Positions 15,716 through 22,849 of a stretch of DNA of 64,000 nucleotides are shown here, piece after piece. The notes below the pieces were generated by a model that saw nothing but the letters and a program-made list of their open reading frames with translations, searched no databases and had not been told where the DNA came from. The first letter of the stretch is position 1; the number at the start of each line of letters is the position of its first letter. The translations under genes and the position numbers were made by a program. Origin of the DNA: Verrucomicrobiota bacterium (GTDB taxonomy: Bacteria; Verrucomicrobiota; Verrucomicrobiia; Limisphaerales; Palsa-1400); NCBI GenBank assembly GCA_049510745.1, contig JBEKYR010000002.1, positions 192,001 through 256,000 of the forward strand, in the 5' to 3' direction.

Positions 15716-15955
15716 AATGACACAAGGCGCAAACGCGCGCCGGCCCAAGGTGCCCCGGCCAAATGAGCGTCACAAGACCCAAATCCGCGCCGTCCCCAAA
15801 CCACCAAAACCGGGCCAAGACAAAAGAGCTTGACAACTCGATTGGCCCTGCTGTTAGATGCACCCACGCTAACCCCCAAGCTGTGGGCCGATTGTGATCG
15901 CTGCGTCGGATCGACGGCTTGCGAAAAAGTGAAGGCTAATAAACAGGAAAGTCTT

Positions 15956-17998
15956 ATGAAAAAACTGCGCTGCTCCCCCAAAATCTCCCGCACCAAGAAA
16001 ATCGCCTGCACCGTCTCGGCGGCCGCCCTCATGCTGGGCGTCAGCTCGGCGGCCACAGTGGGCTTGCACTTCCAGGAAAACTACTGCGGCTCCGCCCGTT
16101 ACTCCGGTTTTCCGGTCACCTTGACCGCGTTCGGCATCGCCCCGAGCGGCTGGGAAAATCTGATCCCGATGGACACGGGCTACGATGGTTGTTCCATCGC
16201 AAGCGCCCCGTATAGTTTCACGTTGAACGAAGTCATCGACACCACCACTTCGGCCAACGGGTTGAATCCCCTGCCAAACGGTTCACTCAATGTGACCTGG
16301 AGCGCCAATGACGCCAATTTCAGCGGATTTGCCGGTTATGGCGGCAAGCCTCCCAGCTATGCCTACGATGGGGCCCCGCCCAACCCCATTCCAACAGGAG
16401 AATGGCAGGTTTACTCAACATTTCTGCGCGACGGAGTTAATTTTGGCATCACTGCGTCGGGCGACTACGATTATCTTTATTGCGGTGACAATTCCCAGCC
16501 TGGTTATACAGTCGATATCACGGGCCTGCACAGCCTCTTCACCAACGGCCCCTTTGTGATCGAATTAATTGCGGCCGCCGATTCCATGCAGACGCTCACG
16601 AATGCCTTTATCATTGACGTGGCTTCTTCCACGACGAATTCGGTCACCTATCCCAGCACTCCCACTCCTTATGACGAGGGGGGAACTTGTAGTCAATGGC
16701 TTCGGGGGCATGGCGGAGGGCTCAGCACGGTCAGCGGGACGTTGAACACCGATCATGTGCAGATTATGAGCAACCATCCGCAACACGGAGGCGTCGGCGT
16801 CCCGCCCAACGGCTTTGACAACGCCGGCACCATCTCCGGCTTCATCATCACCGACAAGCCCGTGGTCACCATGCCGCCCCAATCGCTCTTGGCGAATCTG
16901 GGAGACACAGTTCTGCTGAACCCTTATGCCATTGGCGTGCCGCCGCTGTCGTACCAGTGGCGCAGGAACGGAAGCGCGATTGCCAGCGCCACCGATTCAT
17001 CCTACACGATTGCCGCAGTCACCCTCGGGAACGCCGGAAATTACGATCTGGTGGTCACCAATCTTTACGGCGCCACCACAAGCCTCGTTGCCACCGTGGG
17101 AAGCTTCATCACGCAGGCGTCCGCCGCCGAGGTTGTTGCTGATTCCAATCCCGCCAACCCGGAACGGGACGGCACGGACCTGGGAGCAACCTGGCTGGCT
17201 TCCAGTTCGGATGGCACGACCACCCGTTCAGGCGTGATGCAATTCGTGGCGGCCCAGACCAACGGCATTTCAGTCCAGGGAACCACCAACTTCGATGTCG
17301 ACGCGGGCACGGTCATGTTCTGGATGCAGTCGGCGGGGACTGATACCAGCACGAGCGGAGCCAACGGAGCGTCGCTCTTTTGCCGGCCTTCCGGCACGGC
17401 GGGCGTTGACTTTATGGTGCTGCAGCAAGACGACGGCACCCTCGAGTTCATAGCCCCCGAATCGGCCAACATTTTTGGCTCTGTGGCAAACGTGTCGGAC
17501 AACAAGTGGCATTTTGTGGCGGTCACCTTTGACTCCTCGGGGGCCGGTGGCGCCATCCTCTATGTCGATGGCGCCTTGGATACGACCAATGCCAATTTCC
17601 TCTCATGGTCCTGGCCGGTGGGCCAGCCGCTTCAGATCGGCTTCTCCACGGACTCGACCTGGAGGGCTTACAATGGCTTGCTGGACGACGTTCGCTTCTA
17701 CAACCGCCAGTTGACCGCGGCTGAGATCGCCTCTGTCTTCCATACCGGCGCTTTGGTGGACACCAACGCGCTCCAGATGCAACTCAATTTCAGCGCCCCT
17801 CCCGGAATGGGAATCGTTCTGAGTTGGAAGGAGAGCACCGCCGTCCTCCAATCAGCTTCCAAAGTAAACGGGCCTTATTTGGATGTGCCGGCGGCGGTTT
17901 CGCCCTATATCGTCGTCCCCGAGGCGACTGAAAAGTTCTTCCGCTACCGCTACCTCCACGCGCCGCAATCGCTGATCAGCAATCCCTATCTCATGTGA
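15956..17998 (+). CDS. Secreted protein with Ig-like and LamG/ConA-like domains
   Basis: Signal peptide; PPLSYQWRRNG..GNYDLVVTNLYG (Ig); WHFVAVT..LYVDG..GLLDDVRFYNRQL (LamG). Confidence 0.85.
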   Translation: MKKLRCSPKISRTKKIACTVSAAALMLGVSSAATVGLHFQENYCGSARYSGFPVTLTAFGIAPSGWENLIPMDTGYDGCSIASAPYSFTLNEVIDTTTSANGLNPLPNGSLNVTWSANDANFSGFAGYGGKPPSYAYDGAPPNPIPTGEWQVYSTFLRDGVNFGITASGDYDYLYCGDNSQPGYTVDITGLHSLFTNGPFVIELIAAADSMQTLTNAFIIDVASSTTNSVTYPSTPTPYDEGGTCSQWLRGHGGGLSTVSGTLNTDHVQIMSNHPQHGGVGVPPNGFDNAGTISGFIITDKPVVTMPPQSLLANLGDTVLLNPYAIGVPPLSYQWRRNGSAIASATDSSYTIAAVTLGNAGNYDLVVTNLYGATTSLVATVGSFITQASAAEVVADSNPANPERDGTDLGATWLASSSDGTTTRSGVMQFVAAQTNGISVQGTTNFDVDAGTVMFWMQSAGTDTSTSGANGASLFCRPSGTAGVDFMVLQQDDGTLEFIAPESANIFGSVANVSDNKWHFVAVTFDSSGAGGAILYVDGALDTTNANFLSWSWPVGQPLQIGFSTDSTWRAYNGLLDDVRFYNRQLTAAEIASVFHTGALVDTNALQMQLNFSAPPGMGIVLSWKESTAVLQSASKVNGPYLDVPAAVSPYIVVPEATEKFFRYRYLHAPQSLISNPYLM

Positions 17999-19135: not shown

Positions 19136-19969
19136 TTAAAAGTCTTCTGAATTTGCATCCGCTTGGGCGGTTGAGTCAATGGCGGGTTCGCCGGCCCCGG
19201 CGCCGCGGTGGCAGCAGACGCCGCGCCGGCTGGCGGCGATGAAATCGAGCAGCACGGTGGCGGACGCGCCGGTGAATTGCGTCCGCGCCTCGGCCACCGC
19301 CTCGGAAAGATTCTGCCCGGAGCGAAAGAGCTTGTGGTAAAGCCGTTTCAATTCCAGGCGCTCCTCGGCGCTGAATTGGGCGCGGCGCAGGCCGATGACG
19401 TTGAGTCCACAGAGGTTGTTGACGCCGCGCGCGATGGCAAAGGGAGGCACGTCCTGGCTGACGGCCGTGCCGCCTTGCAGGATGACCAGCGTGCCGAGGC
19501 GCACGAATTGATGCACCAGACAGTTGCCGGAGATGAACACGCCATCGGCCACTTGCGCATAGCCGCCCAGCAAGGCGCCGTTGGCCACGATGACGCGGCT
19601 GCCCAGGCAGACATTGTGGCCGACGTGCGAATTGACCATGAGAAAATTGTCCGAGCCAATGACGGTGGCTTCATCGGGTTTGGCCGAGCCATGCACGGTG
19701 ACCCCTTCGCGAAAGAGGTTGCGGTCGCCGATGACCAGGCGCGCCGGCTCGCCCTTGTATTTGACATCCTGGGGCGCGTCGCCGATGACGCAGCCGGCGT
19801 GGAAATGGTTGCCGGCGCCGATGGTGGCGTGGCCGGTGAGATACACGTGCGGCCCGACCCGGCAGCCCGGGCCGAGAGAGACATGCGCGTCAATCACGGC
19901 GCAGGGGCGGACCTCGACCGTGGAATCCAGTTGGGCTTTTGGACTAATGATGGCCGTTGGATGGATCAT
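19136..19969 (-). CDS. lpxA: Acyl-ACP--UDP-N-acetylglucosamine O-acyltransferase
   Basis: MIHPTAII, hexapeptide repeats, PQDVKY, NSHVGH, VHQF, DVPPF. Lies outside the usual lpxD-fabZ context, so possibly a paralogue. Confidence 0.88.
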   Translation of the reverse strand: MIHPTAIISPKAQLDSTVEVRPCAVIDAHVSLGPGCRVGPHVYLTGHATIGAGNHFHAGCVIGDAPQDVKYKGEPARLVIGDRNLFREGVTVHGSAKPDEATVIGSDNFLMVNSHVGHNVCLGSRVIVANGALLGGYAQVADGVFISGNCLVHQFVRLGTLVILQGGTAVSQDVPPFAIARGVNNLCGLNVIGLRRAQFSAEERLELKRLYHKLFRSGQNLSEAVAEARTQFTGASATVLLDFIAASRRGVCCHRGAGAGEPAIDSTAQADANSEDF

Positions 19970-20089
19970 GCAACCGGCTTCATAAAAGGCACAACGCCGC
20001 CGAAGCGTCAAGCTCCGCCATCCTTGGGCAATGTCCTAATTTGGACGAATTGACGTTTGTAATCGGGGTTGGCACGGAAATTGATTTAT

Positions 20090-20572
20090 CTATTTTGGAA
20101 AATAAAATTTAACCTTTTCCGCGGCAAGCATTTGAAACGGATTTACGCAACCAACATCCATTGCTTTGCAGGCATTTGGAATTTTGACCTGCTTCCCGCT
20201 TGATGCAATTTCAGTCGTGACGACCATGTGCTTGTACGCATGGGCATAGCCAACTAACACAAAATCTGCATCCCCCAAGAATTTAGCCTGTGCCGCACCG
20301 GTATAATTATCAAGAACCCAACCGGTTAAGATCTTTAAACTTTCATAAGTTTGCCCTTCATTAGTTTCAACAAACATTGTCCTTCTCTGTTTGGCCCAGT
20401 TAGAGAGCCAGTCTTGCCGCCCCATCAATTCATCTCGAACTCTTTTAATGCTTAAAACTTTCCCGTTTGCATGTGCATGATCCAGCCATTCCCAAAATCC
20501 AGGACATATAGCAGGTCCATAGTAATGGTTTTTTGCTTCAATAAAAACGTTCGAGTCTAATAGATAGGCCAT
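20090..20572 (-). CDS. DUF4411-family PIN-like protein
   Basis: YLLDSNVFIEAKNHYY..CPGFWEWL, ADFVLVGYA, VVTTE, KIPNAC. Confidence 0.88.
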   Translation of the reverse strand: MAYLLDSNVFIEAKNHYYGPAICPGFWEWLDHAHANGKVLSIKRVRDELMGRQDWLSNWAKQRRTMFVETNEGQTYESLKILTGWVLDNYTGAAQAKFLGDADFVLVGYAHAYKHMVVTTEIASSGKQVKIPNACKAMDVGCVNPFQMLAAEKVKFYFPK

Positions 20573-21717
20573 TCCGTTCCCTTTTGTAGCTCCCTGATAT
20601 ATTTTAGGAAAGTTGCCTCTTTTTTTATACCAAGAAACTGCATCGCATCACGTTGCATTGTTCGTCCAGCAAGGGCCTCCTGAATGATCGTTATAGAAAA
20701 CCTTCTGCTATGTTTATATTGCTCATTTACATAATAATTCCCACCGGTGGATTTGGTTGCCACGCTGGCAATCATTTTGTAATAAGAATTGAATTTAGCC
20801 TCTGTGAGTAAGGCGGCATCGCGGGCACGCCTTGCGACCACAACACGGCTGATTTTATATTCACGGGATAATCTGTCAATCTCACCAATATCATTTATCT
20901 CCCCTCGCCATGAAACACGAAGTTCTTCAAGTGGCAAGAGAACCTCTGCGGCTACACTGTTGCAATAGCGTTCGAGTTCAGTGTGGGTGGAATATGTCCT
21001 TTCAAGATTAGAAACTCCGGTTTCGCCAAGCCACACATGAGCAATTTCGTGGGCAATCGTGAATATCTGCGCTGCCGGAGCGTCGGCCCCGTTTATGAAA
21101 ATCAGCGGAGCATATTCATCGGATAGCGCGAATCCGCGAAATTCATCAACTGATAATATACGACTTGTGTTCTCCCCGACGTATCCAGACCTCAAAACAA
21201 GAATGCCAGAATCCTCTGCCGCCTCAATCGTGTACCTGATCGTGTCTTCCCATTTTACCGTCCTTTGGGCTAATGCAGGGCCGATGTTTAACGTTCTCCT
21301 GATGTCTTCTGCGGTTTCTCGCGCCGGGATTCGTATGGAAGATTTACCAACAAAAGGTAATGGCGTTTTGCCGTTGGAAATCAGATACTCTCGATACCAA
21401 TCTTGTTTGAGTTGTGCGCTGTAAATGACATCCAAGAGATCGTTGCTTGGGTCCGACGAATCTGCACCGTCAACTCGGCGAAAATCGGCAATTGGCAGAC
21501 TAGGCTGCGGTGGCTCTTGCAGAAATAAAAATCCAAATGGGGTATCCGTTTTATCAGCCAATGGTTCCACCAAAGAAAATGGAATGGAGCCAGTTGCCTC
21601 CCATTTCTTCACAAGTCCCAATTGAACCCCAATACGCTCGGCCAATGTGGCCTCAGAAAGGCCCGCCTTGTTGCGCGCCCAGCGCAAGACGCCCGGATTA
21701 AGTATTGCATCGCTCAT
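20557..21717 (-). CDS. XRE-HTH + ImmA/IrrE-family metallopeptidase
   Basis: N-terminal HTH (LRWARNKAGLS..KWE); EFRGFAL, FTIAHEIAH (HExxH), ERYCNSVAAEVLLP. Confidence 0.92.
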   Translation of the reverse strand: MSDAILNPGVLRWARNKAGLSEATLAERIGVQLGLVKKWEATGSIPFSLVEPLADKTDTPFGFLFLQEPPQPSLPIADFRRVDGADSSDPSNDLLDVIYSAQLKQDWYREYLISNGKTPLPFVGKSSIRIPARETAEDIRRTLNIGPALAQRTVKWEDTIRYTIEAAEDSGILVLRSGYVGENTSRILSVDEFRGFALSDEYAPLIFINGADAPAAQIFTIAHEIAHVWLGETGVSNLERTYSTHTELERYCNSVAAEVLLPLEELRVSWRGEINDIGEIDRLSREYKISRVVVARRARDAALLTEAKFNSYYKMIASVATKSTGGNYYVNEQYKHSRRFSITIIQEALAGRTMQRDAMQFLGIKKEATFLKYIRELQKGTEWPIY

Positions 21718-21944
21718 AATACAGCCTCCGATTTAAGCAGGCTGCCGCCAGTTTTGATGTAATCCGAAACCAGCCAATCCACTAACCATGACGGCTTCTT
21801 TTTCCACTGATTCCGTGCAGCCTGCCAGTTTTGTTCGTTTAAGGAAACACAAATTTTTACGGTCCCGCCTGGTCTCGGTTTTCTCCCGGCATTTTTTCTC
21901 CACCCTCCCCATCCCGATTTTTTCTTCATTTTTTCGTTTGACAT
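21714..21944 (-). CDS. Small putative DNA-binding protein (RHH-like)
   Basis: GWGGWRKNAGRKP basic motif, then strand-helix-helix; stop overlaps the start of the IrrE-like gene. Confidence 0.65.
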   Translation of the reverse strand: MSNEKMKKKSGWGGWRKNAGRKPRPGGTVKICVSLNEQNWQAARNQWKKKPSWLVDWLVSDYIKTGGSLLKSEAVL

Positions 21945-22001
21945 ATCTACTTGATATAGTACGATTAAATCAAACTAGGCGAAAAGTCAAAGGAAAAATT
22001 T

Positions 22002-22668
22002 ATGGCAAATGAACTGAAAACCGAAAAAAAAGACGGTTGCGGTTTCCATGCTGGCCGAAGGCAGCAGCATCCGCTCCATTGAACGAACCATCGGCATTCA
22101 CCGCGATACGGTCATGCGGCTTGGCGTGCGCGTTGGCCAGGGTTGCCAGCGCATCATGGACGAAAAGCTCCGCAACCTGAATTGTGGGCGGATTGAGGTT
22201 GACGAGGTATGGGGATTTATCGGGATGAAGCAAAAAACGGCCATGCGGATGAATCAGCCTGGCCCTGACGTTGGCGACATTTGGACGTGGGTTGCCCTTG
22301 ACCCGGAAACCACACTTGTGCCGACGTTTGCCATTGGCGACCGGACGCAATACATGGCGAATTGTTTCATTGAGGATTTGGCGTCTCGCCTTGCTCACCG
22401 GGTTCCACTTTCCAGTGACGGCCTCGAAGCGTATCAGGACGCACTTGAACGCGCTTTCGGCTGCGAAGTGGACTACGGCTCAATTATCAAAATCTTTGGC
22501 CATACGGAACTTGCGGAACAACGGCGGTATTCCCCGCCGGAAGTCGTGAGGGTTAACAGGGTGGCCATCCAAGGGATGCCGGATGTTGACCTAATCTCCA
22601 CAAGCCACGTTGAAAAACAAATCCGCAATTTGGAAGACAAGTTGAGCAGTCTTAAAAAACCAAATTAG
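22002..22668 (+). pseudogene. IS1-family transposase, frameshifted and C-terminally truncated
   Basis: EGSSIRSIERTIGIHRDT (HTH), IEVDEVWGFIG, LSSDG, ISTSHVEKQ, then similarity ends. ATG 22002 is one base out of frame with 22048, across an A8 run at 22024-22031. Confidence 0.85.
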
Positions 22669-22849
22669 GACACTACCCATCCTTGAAAATCCAAAGCGCA
22701 AGTCCCGATTTTCAAGGATCAGGATTCGGCCCCCCGGGAACCGGGGCGGGCACAGTCCCTCTCAATCGCGCCCGGCCGCTTCTTTCGACAAACAATTCTC
22801 CCGCGTCCGCCGAAAGCGGGCGCGGGAGAAGTCGTGCAGCGGAGCAGGG

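Follow-up and report, generated by a model that had tools for sequence, protein, structure and literature searches.

What kind of mobile element lies beside lpxA in this stretch of Verrucomicrobiota DNA, how did it come to that position, and what do the genes that it carries do? The stretch analysed (the window; 64,000 nucleotides of contig JBEKYR010000002.1, assembly GCA_049510745.1) contains a 2651-bp element between lpxA and a degP-type gene for a Do-family protease. We consider it probable that this is a decayed insertion sequence (IS) of IS1 type, lying 7 bp upstream of a likely −35 box and carrying an intact pair of genes similar to the toxin–antitoxin system VapBC52 of Mycobacterium tuberculosis. 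The proposed docking on promoters is the novel part of the family to which the element belongs; the cargo is a variant of a recently characterized system.

The element lies between two exact 8-bp copies of CATCCTTG, was found once in the assembly and ends in 18-bp inverted repeats that agree at 16 of 18 positions; its G+C content is 47.2%, compared with 60.3% for the genome, and both neighbouring genes score above the cut-offs of their models (TIGR01852 for lpxA and TIGR02037 for the protease). These boundaries and this site are as an earlier reading of the same DNA (the original prediction) had described them. Three open reading frames (ORFs) on the minus strand overlap head to tail and encode a protein of 76 aa, an XRE-M78 peptidase of 386 aa and a DUF4411 protein of 160 aa; the remnant of an IS1-like transposase is read divergently from them on the plus strand. 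The window element is an insertion. In the same-genus genome G001, lpxA adjoins the protease gene and the element is absent, and in one run of four (X4) a contig joins position 20017 to position 22677, skipping 2659 bp, which is exactly the element and one copy of the duplication (short side of the joint, 21 bases; likeness set at 90); an empty allele is therefore likely to coexist with the filled one. Evidence for an empty site, which the original prediction had proposed as a check, was found in this form, but a single copy of CATCCTTG was not seen in G001. Two metagenome contigs, L098 and L099, are 100% identical to the window over 2556 and 5000 bp, and may come from the same population. A perfect 13-bp inverted repeat (22679-22719) starts inside the right copy of the duplication, within about 107 bp that are missing from G001. 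A repeated sequence was considered as the target of insertion and rejected: this hairpin, on the right-hand side of the element, has a single copy in the window, and the adjoining 123 bp are single-copy in the genome.

The window element belongs, as a decayed copy, to a single-ORF family of IS1 type that is widespread and can exchange its cargo on either side of the transposase. Members of the IS1 family have a DDE transposase related to InsB, short inverted repeats that start with GG and a target-site duplication of 8–9 bp; in classical IS1, insA and insB are joined by a programmed −1 frame shift, and there is an N-terminal zinc finger. A transposase search of the genome collection gave 66 loci, mostly from Verrucomicrobiota and also from Pseudomonadota, Acidobacteriota and others. 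Paired repeats of the consensus GGTAGTGTCCTAATTTG(A/G) were found in 41 of these, with an exact 8-bp duplication in 40, a proportion to be read in the light of the pairing rule, which itself required a near-exact duplication. The elements measure 1.1 to 7.0 kb. Of 31 genomes from the host family, 27 have the family repeat, and a control search with the reversed pattern gave no hits. That many genomes have these ends around other cargo bears out the original description of a cargo-carrying element of IS1 type.

The family resembles IS1 in its DDE transposase, for which IS1 models give the best scores, in its short GG-tipped repeats and in the 8-bp duplication. The catalytic residues D70, D142 and E207 are kept in 52–53 of 53 transposases, and homologues at 41–44% are labelled ‘IS1 family transposase’ on three plasmid records. 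The scores are nevertheless low: the intact relative L001 gives 27 bits with PF03400 (cut-off 24.1) and an E value of 3e-19 with the IS1 model NF033558, under its cut-off of 100, and the window transposase matches NF033558 only weakly (E 2.3e-12, 47 bits). Scans of the family with Pfam and NCBIfam gave matches to IS1 models and weak ones to IS6, and none to Mutator-like (p-MULT) transposases; no solved structural relative was found. Unlike classical IS1, the family has no insA/insB split (a single full-length frame of ~277 aa was present in 52 of 66 loci) and scores below the NCBIfam cut-off, and a conserved cysteine cluster is absent from the alignment of 53 transposases. It differs further in its two variable cargo slots, in its ribbon-helix-helix (RHH) and ~100-aa companion genes, and in a target choice anchored on the −35 box. 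The family may be catalogued in ISfinder within the ISMhu11 subgroup, which we take to include passenger-carrying IS1 relatives. In enclosing passenger genes between a single pair of repeats it resembles the transporter IS, which the consulted text of a 2021 TnCentral preprint restricts to IS1595 and IS66, and which that of PMC7986276 includes in several IS families.

Members of the family tend to lie at one set distance upstream of what is probably a sigma-70 −35 box, in either orientation. Counted outward from the duplication, exact TTGAC stands at offset 7 in 17 of 51 elements, and at most once at any other of 59 offsets (0.3%); TTG is found there in 32 of 51, against a background of 4%, at 15 left and 17 right ends. 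The motif occurs on both sides in one of the 51, and gene starts usually follow 25–90 nt beyond it in the same direction. Among held-out ends, where the motif is expected at only one end per element, TTG stood at this offset in 10 of 25, in 6 of 29 from the host family (background 2.2%, P = 4e-5) and in 6 of 56 from viral contigs, for which TTGAC was found in 4 of 56 against 0.2% (P = 7e-6). Two of the seven solo-end candidates of this genome (C44 and C8, see below) likewise have TTGAC at the family offset. In the window, the ATG of lpxA lies 42 nt past the start of the predicted TTGACG box; G001 retains TTGACG and the downstream GTTGTGCCTTTTAT, with a different spacer between them. Insertion anchored on the −35 box is strongly preferred but not invariable. 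We found no report of such targeting for the IS1 family in the literature searched, which covered few subscription papers and not ISfinder.

A comparable choice of site has been described by Guerillot et al. 2014 (PMC3942029, in the text consulted) for ISLre2/TnGBS (p-MULT 3) and ISKra4-group (p-MULT 4) elements, which insert 15–17 bp upstream of the −35 boxes of the housekeeping sigma factor. These elements use both orientations if their two repeats are near-identical, and contact with RNA polymerase was proposed, not shown (same source). The present family also has 15 bases between its tip and the −35 box and also inserts in both orientations. Those elements, however, have Mutator-like transposases, to which the IS1-type transposase is unrelated, and shared targeting would therefore be convergent. 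The family probably docks through contact with RNA polymerase at a promoter or by recognizing the −35 box itself, and docking upstream of that box would leave host genes such as lpxA functional. Alternatively, the fixed distance could reflect direct read-out of a TTG(A/C)C motif by the transposase, or the survival of insertions near promoters, with no polymerase contact. Within the flanks only the −35-like motif shows sharp conservation, any −10 signal being weak, and the contact is deduced, all of which suits this explanation, and we hold it to be possible, if doubtful. Survivor bias leaves the one-base peak (17 elements against a maximum of one at other offsets) unexplained, and both versions have to contend with the one-sidedness of the motif, with gene starts that usually follow within 25–90 nt in the same direction, and with a distance that is the same as for ISLre2/TnGBS, where polymerase contact has been proposed. 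A second, unrelated DDE family at the same 15-bp offset, with a small candidate adaptor, offers an independent system for testing the RNA-polymerase-docking model, and may provide a safe-harbour insertion tool.

In order to compare cargo, we surveyed 47 elements (the 41 above and six from relatives) by script-called ORFs; 216 proteins were clustered and 86 scanned against Pfam. Toxin–antitoxin or defence-type genes lie upstream of the transposase in 27 of the 47: a PIN gene with a partner of no known family (11 elements), IrrE-DUF4411 (five), DUF433-HTH (four, with PIN_10 seen in three), AlbA_2-RecG_C (three), other XRE/IrrE genes (two), GmrSD (one) and AIPR (one). The downstream slot holds methylases paired with HNH, BglII or Eco29kI nucleases, or small genes of no known family. 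Next to the transposase, and often ahead of this downstream cargo, is a conserved ~100-aa gene, detected in 23 of the 47 elements, which is an undercount because the overlap filter hid more; it overlaps the transposase stop (L001:6786-7079 and 22 other loci). The model of its product (predicted local distance difference test, pLDDT, 92) consists of a helix, a long beta hairpin, two strands and a helix; Foldseek searches of PDB and BFVD gave nothing at E 0.001, no Pfam or NCBIfam family fits, and the only matches were unnamed Atlas clusters; the protein is a candidate targeting adaptor. A quick tree of the transposases shows no grouping by cargo: the eight IrrE-DUF4411 rows require eight changes, at least four of them forced by well-supported branches, and cargo has therefore been swapped between elements. 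The family looks like a compact delivery route for toxin–antitoxin and restriction genes among soil and peat bacteria, and its unannotated cargo is therefore a source of candidate genes for defence. Most often the upstream cargo is a PIN gene after a 240–280-aa protein with no Pfam or NCBIfam match (L004:4513-5694 and eight other loci), a candidate for an uncharacterized toxin–antitoxin or defence pair.

The third minus-strand gene of the element was listed together with the other two in the original prediction, and here the results set it apart. Homologues of the 76-aa gene occur with three cargo classes, and a palindrome of the form TTGA-N15-17-TCAA covers the divergent promoters in 15 of the 19 loci with this gene type, compared with one of 42 others. 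Because it travels with three cargo classes and with the palindrome, the 76-aa protein is likely to be a core regulator of the element rather than cargo. Its fold is less clear: sister-group members match the NikA-like PF21983, and the model of the protein itself (pLDDT 64, two helices) resembles ParG, omega, NikA and CopASO at Z values of only 2.2–2.5. The head-to-tail overlap of the three genes holds as first described, and the RHH assignment is weakly supported. If the protein has this fold, it would probably repress both divergent promoters via the palindrome.

The two remaining genes are, judged by sequence, a VapBC52-like pair minus the cysteine switch, with the XRE-IrrE gene directly upstream of the DUF4411 PIN gene. 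VapBC52 (Rv2515c-Rv2514c; PDB 9VZY/9VZZ) has a tRNA-cleaving PIN toxin and forms a 1:2 complex, and self-cleavage of VapB52 is triggered by single-stranded DNA, the FR motif being the probable site and C229 a cysteine switch (PMC13273310, 2026, text consulted). Toxicity of VapC52 and rescue by its partner were also shown in 2019 (PMC6504116, text consulted). The window pair shares the antitoxin-then-toxin order, a peptidase of ~390 aa with XRE and IrrE domains, and a DUF4411 PIN toxin, and has the FR motif, the HEXXH motif, the third Glu ligand and the acidic residues of the PIN fold. In the peptidase, F79-R80, H223-E224-H227 and E249 are retained, and among its 120 best homologues HEXXH is found in 120, E249 in 119, F79 in 113 and R80 in 118; its XRE domain matches HTH_3 under the cut-off (E 5e-4). 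In the DUF4411 protein, D6, E48, D103 and E121 align with acidic residues of 9VZY_D and are invariant (11 of 11). The pair differs from VapBC52 in Ser236 in place of the cysteine, in the preceding RHH-like gene and in its IS1-type carrier. It is likely to act as a tRNA-cutting toxin with a peptidase antitoxin predicted to cut itself on single-stranded DNA, and regulation may differ from that of VapBC52 where the switch cysteine is missing.

The dN/dS (nonsynonymous to synonymous) ratios of both cargo genes against three relatives are 0.10–0.22, and the pair is therefore under purifying selection. The peptidase as query gave 57 metagenome loci; DUF4411 is the next gene in 52, and the other five stop at the peptidase gene or just past it. 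Matches to the transposase or the repeats occur only in the close clade (at least 67% identity), and no locus at 48% or below shows a transposase; a general toxin–antitoxin module was therefore captured by the element. Cargo left intact beside a decayed transposase, as originally described, was confirmed by the open frames, the catalytic residues and the dN/dS values; the suggestion that the element might be undescribed does not hold for its cargo, since it is homologous to VapBC52 and the same gene pair, DUF4411.1 with HTH-DUF955 (COG2856), had been predicted as a toxin–antitoxin system in three-component modules by Matelska et al. 2017 (PMC5499597, text consulted). The consulted text of that paper does not mention carriage by insertion sequences, whereas the window pair is IS-borne. 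A promoter-like sequence inside the irrE gene (20879-20852, 11 of 12 positions) was rejected: it is not retained in the two relatives checked and is likely to be due to chance.

The pair could also be a switch like ImmA/ImmR or CapP/CapH, in which an XRE-peptidase repressor cleaves itself on DNA damage and the DUF4411 protein is a mild or regulatory RNase. RosmerTA (RmrA-RmrT) and CapP/CapH share the XRE-M78 antitoxin architecture, and in PADLOC the peptidase matches RmrA (E 3.4e-22) and CapP (E 2.5e-13); IrrE matches in PDB, the absent switch cysteine and an operon divergent from the transposase would fit such a switch as well. The partner, however, is a PIN protein that matches no PADLOC family at E 0.1, RmrT included, and no CBASS was found near the element. 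Among solved structures the antitoxin VapB52 is by far the best homologue of the peptidase, whose partner matches VapC52, which was toxic and rescued in two papers. In addition, the palindrome goes with the RHH gene and not with the XRE protein, the same slot carries other PIN pairs, and distant homologues retain the pair without any transposase. We therefore regard a regulatory switch as unlikely.

The decay of the transposase, also part of the original prediction, is twofold. A +1 frame shift in the A8 run interrupts a frame that is open in most relatives, and the C-terminus is gone: about 67 residues of intact relatives (a conserved block, N210 to W269 of an intact relative) are missing, and the tail past ~22620 is short, unrelated and extends into the right repeat. 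The ~100-aa companion gene and the downstream cargo slot are also gone. A programmed frame shift was rejected in view of the +1 direction, the relatives mostly in frame and the C-terminus missing regardless, and an assembly error is unlikely, because no indels were seen in any of the four runs and L098 and L099 have the same A8 run; L088 is likewise out of frame at the A run. Both ends of the element remain near the consensus. A tblastn search of the assembly with the window transposase matched only itself, and a full-length relative as query found two short transposase fragments (C2:26272 and C8:135387), one of them with the ~100-aa gene and a right end behind it. The assembly is 94% complete in 85 contigs. 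The window copy is not an autonomous transposon, its transposase being truncated and the assembly having no intact helper, and mobilization in trans at present, which had been suggested, is unsupported. The probable course of events is that, after insertion, one internal deletion removed the transposase C-terminus, the companion gene and the downstream cargo and that the copy also acquired the frame shift; it is now likely to be stranded until the cell acquires an intact relative.

Decay of the transposase beside open cargo frames is not confined to the window. Six IS-borne copies (window, L087, L088, L011, L102 and L103) have a broken or deleted transposase and open toxin and antitoxin frames, compared with seven judged IrrE-DUF4411 elements with an intact one (L001, L013, L022, L024, L026, L061 and L108), counts biased by how the loci were found, with a search that in some cases favours intact cargo. 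In L100 the three genes remain (88%), and neither a transposase nor element ends were detected. At L102:4613-6697 there is a 2.1-kb cassette of both repeats and the RHH, IrrE and DUF4411 genes with almost no transposase.

Several observations weigh against the reading of a decayed, promoter-docked IS1-type copy with a VapBC52-like pair. TTG is missing at the offset in 19 of the 51 elements, and the rates at held-out ends (6 of 29 and 6 of 56) are lower; the −10 test (mean 3.06, compared with 1.90) is overstated, because its control is mostly coding DNA. G001 also lacks the ~107 bp beside the insertion point, hence the missing CATCCTTG, and the empty-site joint comes from one contig in a single run, flagged as a possible source of the window. 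The similarity of the DUF4411 protein to VapC52 is modest (E 2.7e-6), and at the position of the switch cysteine of VapB52 and CapP the homologues have Ser in 113, Phe in seven and Cys in none of 120. Protection from phage by VapBC52 needed overexpression of the toxin and was lost on co-expression of the antitoxin (PMC13273310, text consulted), and the close relative L101 has a frame shift in its DUF4411 gene. That the element is instead a young neutral relic, in which both transposase lesions missed the cargo by chance and the cargo is now without effect, is unlikely: although an empty allele probably coexists (so that the insertion may be recent), dN/dS reports past selection and L101 carries a broken DUF4411 gene, the six IS-borne copies with open cargo frames and L100, which retains the three genes, argue for retention.

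A VapBC52-like pair in a docked, decayed element would probably be retained by addiction or, alternatively, through a benefit of abortive infection when phage or DNA damage yields single-stranded DNA. A bolder version, which we put forward tentatively, is that the family is an uncatalogued IS1-type shuttle of defence genes that would dock on sigma-70 RNA polymerase 15 bp upstream of the −35 box by means of the ~100-aa adaptor and swap toxin–antitoxin and restriction cassettes behind one RHH-controlled promoter, leaving them beside housekeeping genes upon decay of the transposase; the cysteine-less VapBC52 variant here would then sense single-stranded DNA through another gate. The Ser-for-Cys variant bears on the need for a cysteine switch in the sensing of single-stranded DNA by IrrE-type antitoxins. 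The window copy by itself is a broken element with near-known cargo.

Features of the window element and its surroundings; positions are those of the window except in the last row.
Feature	Position	Strand	Evidence or remark
lpxA, host gene	19136..19969	-	TIGR01852 277 bits, cut-off 231
lpxA −35 box, predicted (TTGACG); landmark for the proposed docking of the family	20006..20011	-	7 bp from duplication, 15 bp from element tip; promoter function inferred
Left target-site duplication copy (CATCCTTG)	20019..20026	.	sequence
Left terminal inverted repeat	20027..20044	+	2 mismatches against right repeat and against family consensus
DUF4411 PIN-fold protein, VapC52 homologue, predicted RNase toxin	20090..20572	-	PF14367 E 1.9e-46; 9VZY_D E 2.7e-6
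XRE-HTH and IrrE/ImmA (M78) metallopeptidase, VapB52 homologue, predicted self-cleaving antitoxin	20557..21717	-	PF06114 E 7.9e-18; 9VZY_A E 1.8e-24
76-aa likely ribbon-helix-helix regulator of element core	21714..21944	-	homologues upstream of transposase in 19/61 loci
Predicted transposase promoter TTGACA-16-TACGAT	21938-21965	+	sequence prediction
Palindrome TTGA-N15-TCAA over predicted transposase promoter, likely RHH operator	21951-21973	+	predicted
Decayed single-ORF IS1-type DDE transposase	22002..22668	+	frame shift in A8 run 22024-22031; homology stops near 22620
Right terminal inverted repeat	22660..22677	-	equals family consensus
Right target-site duplication copy	22678..22685	.	sequence
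Solo repeat-like ends elsewhere in this assembly (G000)	C44:2614, C8:134812, C46:291, C56:25521, C4:40939, C23:528		most at a sharp G+C drop, small low-G+C genes behind

Elsewhere in the assembly, repeat-like ends gave nine matches, including the element's own two, compared with 1.4 expected; the search of the genome with the repeats thus found an excess of ends but no second paired element, the solo ends having no partner within 4 kb. These are likely to be relics of older insertions, and the one on C8 retains a transposase tail and the ~100-aa gene. Further repeat-like ends lie right beside several elements (for example in the left flanks of L046 and L043), which suggests repeated insertion at one promoter. 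Derivatives of 137–429 bp that resemble miniature inverted-repeat transposable elements, with the family repeats at their ends, lie at G003:C23:7734-7870, G003:C383:34929-35088 and G002:C227:8829-9257, and L003:1350-8364 encloses a nested IS1595-type transposase. The exact family repeat was also found in 56 stretches of viral contigs (L159-L214), and the elements therefore also occur on phage or prophage DNA.

Two observations concern the host genome. A second lpxA-like gene, with 40% identity, is present at C23:1885-2643 of this assembly, and positions 15830-17998 of the window hold a 722-aa ORF with segments that look, read by eye, Ig-like and LamG-like, the product of which is probably secreted.

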